A stretch of 64,000 nucleotides of DNA, from the IMG/VR virus record IMGVR_UViG_3300025121_000030, positions 1 through 64,000 of that record; one strand, 5' to 3'. The stretch comes from a virus. Of this stretch, positions 728 to 3,915 are shown piece after piece. The position numbers were made by a program, and so were the translations under genes. A model generated the notes under the pieces. That model did no database searches and was not told the origin of the DNA. It was given only the letters and a program-made list of their open reading frames with translations. Within the stretch, counting starts at the first letter, position 1; every line of letters starts with the position of its first letter.

Positions 728-819
728 TATGTCGGCCTCCTTATTCGTTTTAAAAATATATGTACCTACCTATATTATATGCAATATTTATACCATTTAT
801 TATATTTATATTCTGTTAG

Positions 820-836
820 ATACCCTTATAGGGTAT
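820..836. promoter_or_regulatory. CsoR-type operator-like palindrome ATACCC-N5-GGGTAT
   Basis: ATACCCTTATAGGGTAT; same architecture as the B. subtilis CsoR operator as I recall it; partial copy at 897-912. Confidence 0.5.
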
Positions 837-1410
837 AGTGATTTAATTAATTTGTATCTGTGATTATATATAGGGTTTTTAGGTTGTTTATATATGATAC
901 TATATAGGGTATATTTGATATGTGTTGTGTGGATTGTGTTGGAATTTATTAGTGTATTGTAATGATACAATTACATGTTCTATAATGGAACAATAGTGTA
1001 TTAAAATAGAACAATAAGGTGATTTATTGTGTTAGAATGGAACATATTTTTAGTATAAATTAAGGCTTATTTGGTTAGATATGAGGAAAATTTATATTTG
1101 TTTATATATGATATTTTGGAATAGTTTATATAATATATTGTTTGATTCGTGGTTGGTTTTATTTATATTTATATTCTGTAGGTGCTAGTGTATGTGATTT
1201 TATTTTACGTTAAAATTTAAGGTATACTACAATAGGGTTTATTGGCGTTGTGAGAGGGTTTAAGACAGGTATAATTATTTATGCGTGTAGGTGTATTATG
1301 ATTTTAATGTGTGGATATTTGGATTTGGTAAATATTAGGTGATATTAGAGTGATACTTAGATGATACCACTATTGATGGTAGTATGTGATAGTATGATAT
1401 TTGTTTTATG

Positions 1411-1882
1411 TGGTAGCAGTAAAGTATTATATAGTATCATAATGCGGTAATATGGTATATATGTATAGGTATCATATCCATAGTAATATTGGTAACGATA
1501 CTAAATATTTGGTATCATATAATACTTTTATATTGGTAGCATGTTAGGTAATAGATTAGGCAATAATTTATATTTATTCGTGGTAGCATGATATATTATT
1601 TTAGTAACATAGTTGATAATATGTATGGTAGCATAGAGTAATAATATACAATGCGTGATACTTTATTAAATGGTAATAGATGATTTATAATAGATAATTT
1701 ATAATTTAAGTATTAGTAGTAATATGATTAGTAACATGATTTGTAATATAGTGTATGTTAGTTGATTATATTATTGGTAACGTATGATGTGGTATATATT
1801 GATTTTTGGTAGCACTTTGATAGCATGATATTAATATTGATGACTTGTTTTATATTTATGTGTTTATGTTTTTTGGTAACAA
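1411..1882 (+). repeat. array of ~18 degenerate 9-bp direct repeats, consensus TRGTARCAT
   Basis: tggtagcat at 1534, 1581, 1626; tagtaacat at 1602, 1729; tggtatcat 1510; tggtagcag 1411; tggtagcac 1807; tggtaacaa 1874 and others. Confidence 0.65.
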
Positions 1883-2408
1883 AGTTATCAACATTTTATT
1901 ATCATGGTTGTGGAATAGCTGTTGTATATGGTTTTATTAGTTGTTGGTTTTATATATACTATAGTATGGTATATAGTAGAGTATTATATGTATGTTTAGT
2001 GGGAGATTGATTTTAGTGTATGAGTGAGATAATACACTGGTATACTATATTGTATTATATGAATATGTAGATATATGTATATTATGTTTTATGTTGTTCT
2101 GACTTAGTAGTCGGAGTTGTTAAAATTGTTAGATATTTTGTATTATGTATATTATTATACGTTGTTTACTTATATACATTGTATAAAGTTACACAGTGTG
2201 CAATAATGTTACATTATGATACAGTGTATGAGGTTACTAGTACACTTATACAATAGTTAAATTGTCAGATTATTATATAGAAATCATTTCTATATTAGAT
2301 AGTTTATATTACTATGTGATATTGATTGTATAACTATATGTTGTAGTGTTTATTGCTTTGTAATTGTGTGATAATTATGTAGTATTAATTAGTATTAGAT
2401 GTAAAAAG

Positions 2409-2441
2409 TTATACACAATTTGTTAACAAGGTTGTGGATAA
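2409..2441. promoter_or_regulatory. pair of inverted DnaA boxes
   Basis: TTATACACA at 2409-2417 and TGTGGATAA (reverse complement of TTATCCACA) at 2433-2441; one-mismatch TTATCAACA at 1885 and 3146. Confidence 0.6.
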
Positions 2442-2512
2442 ATCCTTTAGTATGGTAAAGTGTTAAAGTAGTAACGTGTTAAACAAAACGCTGTTTGTTA
2501 TCTAAAACGATG

Positions 2513-2548
2513 TGACAAGACAGCTGTATATACACCTGACAAGACAGC
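2513..2548 (+). repeat. 12-bp direct repeat TGACAAGACAGC x2
   Basis: exact copies at 2513-2524 and 2537-2548, immediately before parS. Confidence 0.7.
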
Positions 2549-2557
2549 AGTTAAAAA

Positions 2558-2573
2558 TGTTCCACGTGGAACA
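2558..2573. promoter_or_regulatory. parS: parS (ParB/Spo0J binding site)
   Basis: perfect 16-bp palindrome TGTTCCACGTGGAACA (extends to 20 bp, 2556-2575), fitting the bacterial parS consensus. Confidence 0.85.
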
Positions 2574-2957
2574 TTATAATTATTTTTTGATTGTGTTTCA
2601 CAGTTTACCACTTAATTCTTCACACTCAATGTTCTATAATTTATATTCACGACAAAATTATTCCCGGCGAAGCTGGCAGGAGAATATTAACCGGAATAAT
2701 CATCAATTCTATTTTATGTAGCTTCACGACGACCACATCAAATGTAAATATTATTCTAGGGTATTTATGCCACTCACACATATACAATTATACATTTACC
2801 ACTCATAGCTACAACAAGCAGCCACTCAGCCGACAAACAAATATTCTAACAATTCCCAATACTACCATATTCAACCAACAATTCTCTACATAAGGTTTAT
2901 TATGTAGAGATATTCAAAGTCGGGAGCAGTACCGGGGCGTAGTTTACAAATTGAGAG

Positions 2958-2972
2958 TGATAATCATTATCA
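2958..2972. promoter_or_regulatory. Fur box (7-1-7)
   Basis: TGATAATCATTATCA, perfect 7-1-7; 17/19 match to GATAATGATAATCATTATC at 2953-2971. Confidence 0.7.
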
Positions 2973-3252
2973 TATGCCACCTAATCAGATGCATCTTCAC
3001 GTCCATTTTATTTTTAACTTGCGATTATCGCTAATCAATCGTACAACATCATAAATAACAACTATTTACACATAATAATCAAAACACTTTTAAATCACTC
3101 CTACACCACATATTTTTAATTCTAATCAATAAAATCGTTCAAATTTTATCAACAAATACTACTTTATCCTCACTCTACTCACTAATTTCACTCTCCTTTA
3201 TTATATCACAAATCAAATAATACCAACAATCTCTCACACATTAAATTTATCC

Positions 3253-3296
3253 TAATCATACTTTAATCATACTTTAATCATACTCTAATTACACTT
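3253..3296 (+). repeat. 11-bp tandem repeat x4 (TAATCATACTT)
   Basis: taatcatactt, taatcatactt, taatcatactc, taattacactt. Confidence 0.8.
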
Positions 3297-3915
3297 TAAA
3301 ATATACTCATAATATACCAAATAAATAAAATTAAATTCATAAACATCGAATAATATTTTTACCATTAAATTTATATAAAATAGTGTTAATATATTTTACC
3401 TAAACATCCCTACATCCATTATACTATCTACATTTATATCACTTTTACAAAACCAAACCAATATAACTAAACCTAATTTGGATACGTTGGTTAGTTTTTA
3501 ACTATATAAACAATTTTGATTTTTGTTTATAATTTATTATATTTAATTATTAATTATGTTTTTAAAATAACAACCTAAAAATTTACCAAACTTAACTTAA
3601 ACCAAATAACCATCAATTCCTTACCATACAATATTTTAGGCAACATCCCTCAGATAAAGTGTATATAATATAATACAACTTGTCCATGCTATATGCTTTA
3701 AACGCTTATGTAACAATGATTTACAGTGATTTATTATTTTTTCACCTTTGGTAAATTTTTTTTATTATTATTTCATTTCTATTATCTATACTCTTACTTT
3801 ATATATACAACTACTTTTTACAAAAAATTAATCCCCATTTCAAAGAATTAAATTTAACTATATTAACCCTATTTACATTGTCTACTTATAATTTTGAGGA
3901 GATCTAAATTTATAC

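Follow-up and report, generated by a model that had tools for sequence, protein, structure and literature searches.

In phage P1, the recombination site loxP lies near the packaging start (pac), and the phage tyrosine recombinase Cre acts there to circularise the terminally redundant DNA and to resolve multimers. Repeat arrays are located near pac, and the P1 prophage is maintained as a plasmid, as is also reported for phage c-st. In phi29, five parS sites together with Spo0A boxes provide for spore entrapment (PMC2731898). Here we describe a non-coding region, positions 728-3915 of a 64,000-nucleotide stretch of viral DNA (IMG/VR record IMGVR_UViG_3300025121_000030, positions 1 to 64,000; the window hereafter), in which a host-type parS, a dif-like recombination site and a Fur-type palindrome overlapping a promoter-like site lie between two arms of opposite and extreme strand composition. 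The presence of the sites, their statistics, their conservation, the architecture and the synteny with other phages were established directly; the binding proteins and every function are inferred from them. On balance, the region probably acts as the principal cis-acting hub of a clostridial, SPbeta/c-st-like phage, serving segregation, Xer-type recombination and a host-regulated promoter, with the packaging start as a further probable function.

The window is the beginning of a single viral contig of 98,268 bp (26% G+C; about 66% complete by CheckV), and near-identical DNA is present in groundwater, soil and sediment metagenomes of ten studies. The gene content is SPbeta/c-st-like, with a helicase, a terminase, a portal and a YonO-like RNA polymerase that shares 47% identity with the Clostridium phage c-st enzyme and 38% with those of Enterocloster phages. 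The phage appears to be an uncultured, Clostridium-type, SPbeta/c-st-like siphovirus of roughly 150 kb. A search for DNA similarity against 50,697 GenBank phages gave no match. The parS block and its flank gave none in species-representative genomes, hence neither a host nor a prophage copy was found there, and no RNA dataset carrying the region is listed among public runs. Window position 1 is not a physical end, as a 12.7-kb Logan contig of run X1 extends 7,881 bp further leftward; by analogy with the related genomes G001 and G004, additional accessory genes and parS copies may lie there.

Relatives were collected with three queries. The helicase gene retrieved nine related IMG/VR contigs (57-85% identity), the pattern of the parS flank one more, and a conserved 19-mer of the core 46 metagenome contigs, of which 41 were true relatives. 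The parS 16-mer alone was uninformative, being present in more than 120 unrelated IMG/VR contigs. The conservation profile of the core was computed over 34 distinct cores, and motif counts were compared with 300 dinucleotide shuffles made separately in the left arm, the core and the right arm.

The most striking property of the region is its strand composition, of which the finding text of the initial annotation says nothing. A core of ordinary composition, about 0.6 kb long (2400-3000), separates a C-poor left arm from a G-poor right arm (Table 1). The same order was found in the window, G001, G004, G005 and G006, and smaller versions of it in G002, G003 and L133. The mean GC skew was +0.59 in 26 distinct related left arms (range 0.22-0.79) and -0.78 in 22 distinct related right arms (-0.59 to -0.90). 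This opposite, extreme composition is real and conserved, and it is unexplained. The related arms are mosaic, being 70-87% identical in pieces with genes inserted at differing points, and they seem to be hot spots for the acquisition of cargo genes. In G004 (L141, reverse strand, 14390-16210), a 606-aa minus-strand open reading frame (ORF) lies between the core and a piece of the right arm. The region had been described as gene-free, and this holds: it contains no ORF of more than 100 aa, and the sole ORF of at least 90 aa (2591-2893) has no counterpart in relatives. Rfam (E up to 1) and tRNA searches of positions 1-9000 were negative, and sigma-70-like sites as a class were not enriched (106 found compared with 88 +/- 10). 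Short stretches of extreme GC and AT skew, maintained by a mechanism that is likewise unknown, also characterise GRINS; those, however, are repeated coding segments of polyketide synthases linked to gene conversion, whereas here two non-coding arms of opposite polarity enclose a cis-acting core.

Table 1. Features of the non-coding region and of its surroundings, in window coordinates
Feature	Position	Strand	Remarks
Distal piece of C-poor left arm	1-240		0-4 C per 100 nt
Insertion-polymorphic segment, 938 bp	152-1089		143-aa gene, ATACCC palindrome, TGTTC-N7-GAACA, three TATAGGGT copies, ATGGAACA repeats
Lone 143-aa gene	296-727	-	own terminator 282-297; no known family
Left arm	728-2400	+	top strand C-poor, G+T-rich: A 31, C 5.6, G 19, T 44%
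7-3-7 palindrome ATACCCT-TAT-AGGGTAT, ATACCCTTATAGGGTAT	820-836		ATACCC-N5-GGGTAT type
TGTTC-N7-GAACA, TGTTCTATAATGGAACA	976-992		one of three ATGGAACA copies
Promoter-like site TTGTGA-16-TATAAT	1248-1275	+	towards core; 10/12 consensus positions; match to consensus only
14 same-strand iterons TGGTA[GAT][CT][AG], core TGGTAGCA	1378-1881	+	
Facing DnaA-type box pair, TTATACACA at 2409 and TGTGGATAA at 2433	2405-2441		
Block TAAAC..AACG..TGTTATC..ACGA	2478-2510		conservation at least 0.9 at most positions, 34 distinct cores
Host-type parS, TGTTCCACGTGGAACA	2558-2573		at the skew flip
T-rich tract and GTTTCAC half-parS-like motif	2574-2603		conserved directly after parS
dif/lox-like site, 11-bp arms TCTCTACATAA and TTATGTAGAGA, 6-bp spacer GGTTTA	2883-2910		missed by the initial annotation
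Block CCGGGG..TTTACAAAT..Fur-type palindrome..ATATGCCACC	2932-2981	+	conserved
Fur-type palindrome TGATAATCATTATCA	2958-2972		perfect 7-1-7 match to TGATAATNATTATCA
Right arm	3001-3915	+	top strand G-poor, 4.3% G
Block GCGATTATCGC..AATCGTACAACATCATAAATAACAACTATTT	3020-3075		conserved
11-bp tandem repeat TAATCATACTT, 4.3 copies	3253-3299		in right arm
Xer-like tyrosine recombinase, 281 aa	8140-8985	+	Pfam Phage_int_SAM_1 and Phage_integrase

The chromosomal parS consensus is a 16-bp palindrome, TGTTNCACGTGNAACA. The core holds a perfect match to it, which is the sole site with no or one mismatch in the 98-kb genome (0.02 perfect matches in shuffles). The site is perfect in 35 of the 41 related contigs and has one mismatch in two. 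With a conservation of about 1.0 over the 34 cores it ranks first among the elements of the core, and its distance from the 19-mer varies from 357 to 777 bp among relatives. Related genomes carry one to four parS sites; G001 has three perfect copies and one with a single mismatch, and G004 has two. parS is thus maintained by selection in the relatives. A ParB_N gene was found in none of G000, G001, G004 and G005 (about 124 kb combined around the core). Since no phage ParB was found, recruitment of the host ParB (Spo0J) by parS is the simplest reading and most likely the right one. Host ParB bound at parS would couple the phage DNA to host segregation and so favour plasmid-like inheritance or carriage into the spore. 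Among the roles that the initial annotation had proposed for the region, a tie of the phage replicon to host segregation is the one that fits best.

The 30 bp after parS are almost invariant among relatives, and further blocks of the core are conserved (Table 1). RNAalifold gave an energy of 0.00 on both strands for the block at 3020-3075, and apart from the palindromes themselves no conserved RNA structure was detected in the core blocks. The lack of a common RNA fold favours DNA sites. Just left of parS (2514-2548), two GACAAGACAGC copies stand 24 bp apart around the palindrome TGTATATACA; this pair is unique in the genome and is not conserved in relatives.

The Fur-type palindrome was likewise well above expectation: allowing up to one mismatch, one 7-1-7 site was observed, and this one perfect, compared with 0.01 in shuffles. 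The palindrome is overlapped by a promoter-like TTTACA-16-CATTAT directed into the right arm. Of the 41 relatives, 17 have a perfect palindrome and about 22 one with a single mismatch, in a set picked with a 19-mer that includes its first 4 bases. In the G003/L134 lineage, two copies of TTCGACA (Spo0A box) stand after this TTTACAAAT block in place of the Fur-type palindrome. These boxes lie 10-11 bp apart directly after the block in G003 (L128 4975-5010) and in L134 (about 610-680). The swap suggests that a single conserved promoter has come under different host regulators; a regulator of host state (Fur here, Spo0A in the sister lineage) would gate a core transcript entering the right arm. 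Thus, real cis sites of the host-protein type are present, as the initial annotation had held: a perfect, conserved parS and a conserved Fur-type palindrome.

As in phi29, a chromosomal-type parS occurs here without a ParB of the phage's own and a putative operator of a host global regulator lies at a promoter-like site, with tandem 0A boxes at the equivalent spot in relatives of the present phage. The two differ in that here a single non-coding hub, enclosed by the skewed arms, gathers these sites next to a dif-like one. phi29 is moreover a 19-kb, protein-primed phage, whereas the Fur-type site belongs to a siphovirus of about 150 kb known from sequence alone.

The dif-like site has all 11 of 11 arm positions complementary, a quality unique in the genome, and it combines the geometry of a Xer site with the inner bases CATAA..TTATG. 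As a predicted target of Xer recombinases, it is a further site of the host type beside those listed by the initial annotation. Its right arm agrees with that of the B. subtilis dif (sequence from PMC4578258) at 8 of 11 positions. Sites of the window type stand 59-81 bp left of the 19-mer in related cores. Twelve of 30 related cores carry instead, 188-239 bp left of the 19-mer, a site whose arms share 17-19 of 22 positions with the B. subtilis dif, often with 11/11 in the right arm. Repeats of the 11-6-11 kind have a background of about 0.017 per kb (300 kb of related DNA), yet seven independent phages have one in their core; PMBT24, SPbeta and c-st (in its terminal repeat) are among them. The site shows few compensatory changes and is asymmetric in many variants, which fits a recombinase site better than a terminator, and the latter assignment was rejected.

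The likely partner of the site is the Xer-like recombinase encoded in the window. The 281-aa protein matches the XerA, XerC and XerD models over its full length (E values of 1e-41 to 1e-44), and these matches fall short of the equivalog cut-offs. A recombinase gene of similar size is present in G002 (directly beside the right arm), G003, G004, G005, PMBT24, c-st and SPbeta. The phage enzyme would act at the 11-6-11 site, and host XerCD would do so in the relatives that carry a copy of the host dif; the reaction would circularise terminally redundant virion DNA and resolve multimers. A site for recombination in or close to the terminal redundancy would follow the scheme of P1 pac and lox, in which the DNA is circularised on entry. 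Compared with P1, the site is a dif-like 11-6-11 repeat (nearly the host dif in some relatives) and not a 13-8-13 loxP, the recombinase is Xer-like, a host-type parS would serve partition in place of P1's own ParB-parS, and pac is placed by synteny only.

This synteny rests on three phages that have been studied experimentally. The record of PMBT24 starts at the pac site found with PhageTerm (PMC11035940). A C-free arm (skew +0.8) flanks this point on one side and a G-free arm (-0.95) on the other. The genome's only parS stands 358 bp to its left and a dif-like repeat 146 bp to its right (record 146-173). The arms, a nearly C-free one of 360 bp and a nearly G-free one of 400 bp, were seen at record 99,589-99,962 (L125 14589-14963) and 1-780 (L124). 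SPbeta opens between yonR and yonP (bioRxiv 10.1101/2021.11.22.469490), and the yonR-yonP intergenic region contains a dif-like repeat and a G-poor stretch of 330 bp. Neither arms nor parS, nor in the case of PMBT24 the dif-like repeat, are mentioned in the passages searched of the papers on PMBT24 (PMC11035940) and SPbeta (bioRxiv 10.1101/2021.11.22.469490). In c-st the order is syntenic: terminal repeat, small genes, FtsK-like gene, helicase, YonO. Its terminal direct repeat of 404 bp contains an inverted 11-6-11 repeat (L122 285-312) with 10 of 11 positions paired, TCAACACATAA TAATAG TTATGTCTTGA, so that both virion ends carry a candidate Xer-type site, and weakly C-poor and G-poor stretches flank the terminal repeat. 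By synteny with PMBT24, SPbeta and c-st, the packaging start probably lies in or beside the core.

Like the SPP1-type pac (pacL-pacC-pacR) and the pac of SPbeta and PMBT24, the region is non-coding, with repeats on both sides of a central segment, in a syntenic place upstream of YonO and the structural gene block. It differs from the SPP1 type in that the arms are defined by composition and not by a common repeat, and its cleavage site is predicted only.

The polarity of the arms resembles that of a bacterial chromosome terminus. In both, a dif-like site stands at a switch of the G-rich strand, with G-rich strands pointing inward on both sides, and a Xer-like recombinase is encoded nearby, joined in the present clade by an FtsK-like ATPase. 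The arms might therefore be polarity signals for a DNA translocase (host FtsK/SpoIIIE or the phage FtsK-like protein), converging on the dif-like site, an idea that we consider quite doubtful. The region would then be a miniature chromosome terminus fused to parS, at which host machinery would resolve or circularise the DNA or pump it into the forespore, and avoidance of C on the inward-reading strand would exclude misoriented loading motifs. Unlike a terminus, the arms contain no known KOPS/SRS, their skew is far stronger (0.6-0.95) over a length of only 0.3-1.7 kb, and the origin markers parS and DnaA boxes occupy the same spot. The KOPS/SRS motifs GGGNAGGG, GAGAAGGG and GAAGAAG are absent from the arms of the window. 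Those of PMBT24 lack GAGAAGGG and GAAGAAG and have GGGNAGGG twice, in one arm only; strand polarity alone fits KOPS/SRS. No polar k-mers are common to the two arms of the window beyond AT-rich words, nor to those of PMBT24 beyond composition. In the relatives (L151-L196), the inward-reading strand of either arm set holds about five times as many TGGTTGG/GGTTGG words as expected, a modest signal, and TGGTTGG occurs once in the arms of the window. The arms are also independent of the FtsK-like gene, as arms and core are present in G002, G003, PMBT24 and SPbeta, all of which lack it.

A second account of the arms takes them as two convergent non-coding transcription units whose transcripts end in the core. 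G/U-rich RNA would come from the promoter-like sites at 957-986 and 1248-1275 on the left, and read-through of the leftward FtsK cassette would enter from the right; the skew would then obey a rule that holds for the whole genome, by which sense strands are rich in G. Coding strands are G-rich genome-wide (mean skew +0.22), and the minus-strand genes at 3900-7900 show -0.3 to -0.7. Both hexamers of the 1248-1275 site are kept in G004, and hairpins are available at 2556-2575 and 2883-2910. However, the G-poor arm precedes rightward genes in G002, G003 and SPbeta, where the tail of a leftward operon is excluded. The arms of PMBT24 have 41-49% G+C compared with about 32% for its genome, which indicates enrichment of G or C on one strand and not mere loss by decay. 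The parS hairpin was rejected as an intrinsic terminator, as 8-9 nt separate the stem from the T-run, more than a standard terminator allows, and no RNA run holds the sequence. Convergent transcription is thus, in our estimation, a rather improbable origin of the arms.

The left arm also carries the iteron array. Five of the six plus-strand TGGTAGCA copies of the 98-kb genome fall within it, and the iterons are phased at 11.35 bp (Rayleigh R 0.855, reached by none of 5000 random position sets), the pattern to be expected of protein assembly along one face of the DNA. A phage DNA-binding protein would assemble on them for replication, partition or packaging. Iterons occur elsewhere as six copies in the left arm of G004, and as four in a C-poor patch of G001 about 5.5 kb off, five genes from the core. 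DnaA-type boxes are present as well. TGTGGATAA at 2433 is the only perfect DnaA box (TTATCCACA-type) of the region, the near-match TTATCAACA lies at 1885 and 3146, and the paired module has a 34-bp copy at 1881-1914. Six boxes with at most one mismatch (one perfect, five with one mismatch) were counted compared with 1.75 in shuffles (3.4-fold; fraction of shuffles with as many, 0.007).

These elements raise the possibility that the region is chiefly a replication origin, lytic or of a plasmid-prophage, where DnaA boxes and iterons would load an initiator beside AT-rich DNA. parS and a dif-like site are the usual companions of plasmid origins, and the syntenic block of c-st has annotated partition genes of the TubZ-like and ParB-like kinds. 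The left arm of G003 (L128 4240-4400) has three perfect and two near-perfect DnaA boxes in about 100 bp, followed by AT-rich ATCGATAA repeats, and that of G002 a very AT-rich repeat tract. Yet the DnaA pair is kept in G001 and G006 only, with a column conservation of 0-0.3 over the 34 cores, and DnaA boxes are missing from G002, G004, G005 and L133. The distance of the G001 iterons from the core, the lack of an identified initiator gene beside the array and the sign of the skew switch, which is that of a chromosome terminus, also speak against an origin. We regard such a principal role as unlikely; it is compatible with the hub favoured here, and the two are not exclusive. A 380-aa protein (10558-11700) was considered as a c-st-type ParB-like or TubZ-like protein and showed no similarity to these.

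The iterons could also belong to a clt- or oriT-like cis site of the FtsK-like ATPase and a Replic_Relax-like module, the translocase loading on the 8-bp TGGTAGCA repeats as TraB loads on 8-bp repeats in Streptomyces plasmids. The FtsK-like gene, a weak match to the TraB model, lies 1.3 kb rightward, the repeats are 8 bp long and all co-oriented, and G000, G001 and G004 have both gene and iterons. G005, however, has the gene without such iterons, and G002, G003, PMBT24 and SPbeta have arms and core without the gene. The FtsK-like protein shows no Ftsk_gamma DNA-reading domain (Pfam). A search with this protein found no relative in IMG/VR and one distant cassette in species genomes (L001), and L001, the only other genome found with the cassette, has no such non-coding region. 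A clt/oriT function is accordingly hardly credible.

The initial annotation had proposed a landing pad or decoy array, a stretch that would soak up DnaA, Fur, CodY, CsoR and ParB, thereby upsetting host regulation or protecting the DNA on entry. Every motif string that it quoted, the two CodY-like 15-mers included, was found where it had been placed, and several host-type motifs do lie within 3 kb. Motif density exceeded that of the shuffles for parS, the Fur-type site and the ATACCC and TGTTC palindromes, mildly so for the DnaA boxes. Matches to the CodY box AATTTTCWGAAAATT had 3 mismatches throughout and are at chance level; three were observed, compared with 0.7 in shuffles, and the remainder of the genome has 0.9 per 3.2 kb. 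The enrichment of DnaA-like boxes and their cluster in G003 would suit titration, and the number of sites would rise with the many copies of the genome present late in infection. Known titration loci, however, are clusters of high-affinity sites, whereas parS, the Fur-type box and the dif-like site are each single-copy. The motif mix is kept in related phages for parS and the Fur-type palindrome, whereas the DnaA boxes, mostly imperfect, are lineage-specific and the GACAAGACAGC repeats are unconserved. The conserved sites hold fixed positions near the promoter-like block and the recombination site, like working operators or centromeres. Because of copy number and conservation the decoy idea fails, and we hold it to be very unlikely.

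The outer part of the left arm is polymorphic. A contig of run X12 joins position 151 to 1090, lacking 152-1089, and G004 likewise is without the segment. Positions 1-240 are 81% identical to the left arm of G004, where they continue straight into the equivalent of window 1095. The protein of the 143-aa gene has no match in Pfam, PHROG or NCBIfam, and in G001 a homologue sits about 7 kb from the core. An ATACCC-N5-GGGTAT palindrome was observed once and in none of the shuffles, and in G001 and G002, too, a palindrome of this type borders the left arm on its outer side. In the window it lies downstream of a minus-strand promoter-like site (890-863) and is probably an operator heading the leftward genes; the initial annotation read it as a CsoR-type site, a putative likeness, and the adjoining gene here is of no known family. 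Just outside the corresponding palindrome of G001 (L140 15780-15970), a G+C-rich stretch of about 190 bp without a plausible ORF could be a small structured RNA gene. TGTTC-N7-GAACA (976-992) was also observed once and in none of the shuffles. It overlaps the TATAAT of the plus-strand promoter-like site 957-986, and G001 retains both TGTTCTATATTGGAACA and the ATGGAACA repeats. The initial annotation had noted no convincing gene nearby for most of the sites to regulate. This fails in part, because the ATACCC and TGTTC palindromes adjoin promoter-like sites within the insertion that carries the 143-aa gene, and the Fur-type palindrome overlaps the conserved promoter-like TTTACA block.

Several observations weigh against the region being such a hub. 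The motifs were picked after the sequence had been read, among many possible regulators, and the shuffle p-values are therefore optimistic; conservation in relatives was for this reason given more weight than they were. As the record is about 66% complete, a ParB gene could sit in the missing part, and PMBT24, reported as strictly lytic (PMC11035940), disfavours plasmid partition as the sole role of parS. The Fur-type palindrome is degenerate in G005; it might just as well serve a phage protein as operator or be a terminase site. A terminase could also be what recognises the 11-6-11 repeat, in place of a recombinase; in G001, which has a dif-like site, a tyrosine recombinase was not found in its 71 kb. 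Contig ends cluster 28-175 nt right of the 19-mer (10 of 36 full contigs at no more than 175 nt) at non-homologous positions. Since the homologous positions differ, a fixed DNA end was rejected, and the cluster is read as assembly breaks between co-occurring strains.

If the region is the hub proposed here, large SPbeta/c-st-like phages of spore-forming Firmicutes would concentrate their cis sites in one non-coding place, which would stand at the packaging start point, borrow host ParB (through parS) and Xer (through the dif-like site) and sense the state of the host via Fur or Spo0A. It offers precise sites to mutate, and the C-free and G-free arms around pac constitute a conserved, unexplained feature of the DNA. 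The apparent exchange of a Fur-type for a Spo0A-type site at one block is a testable case of phages rewiring how they read host signals. The combination of parS and 0A boxes known from phi29 would thus extend to large temperate or plasmid-like clostridial phages, including toxin-converting ones.

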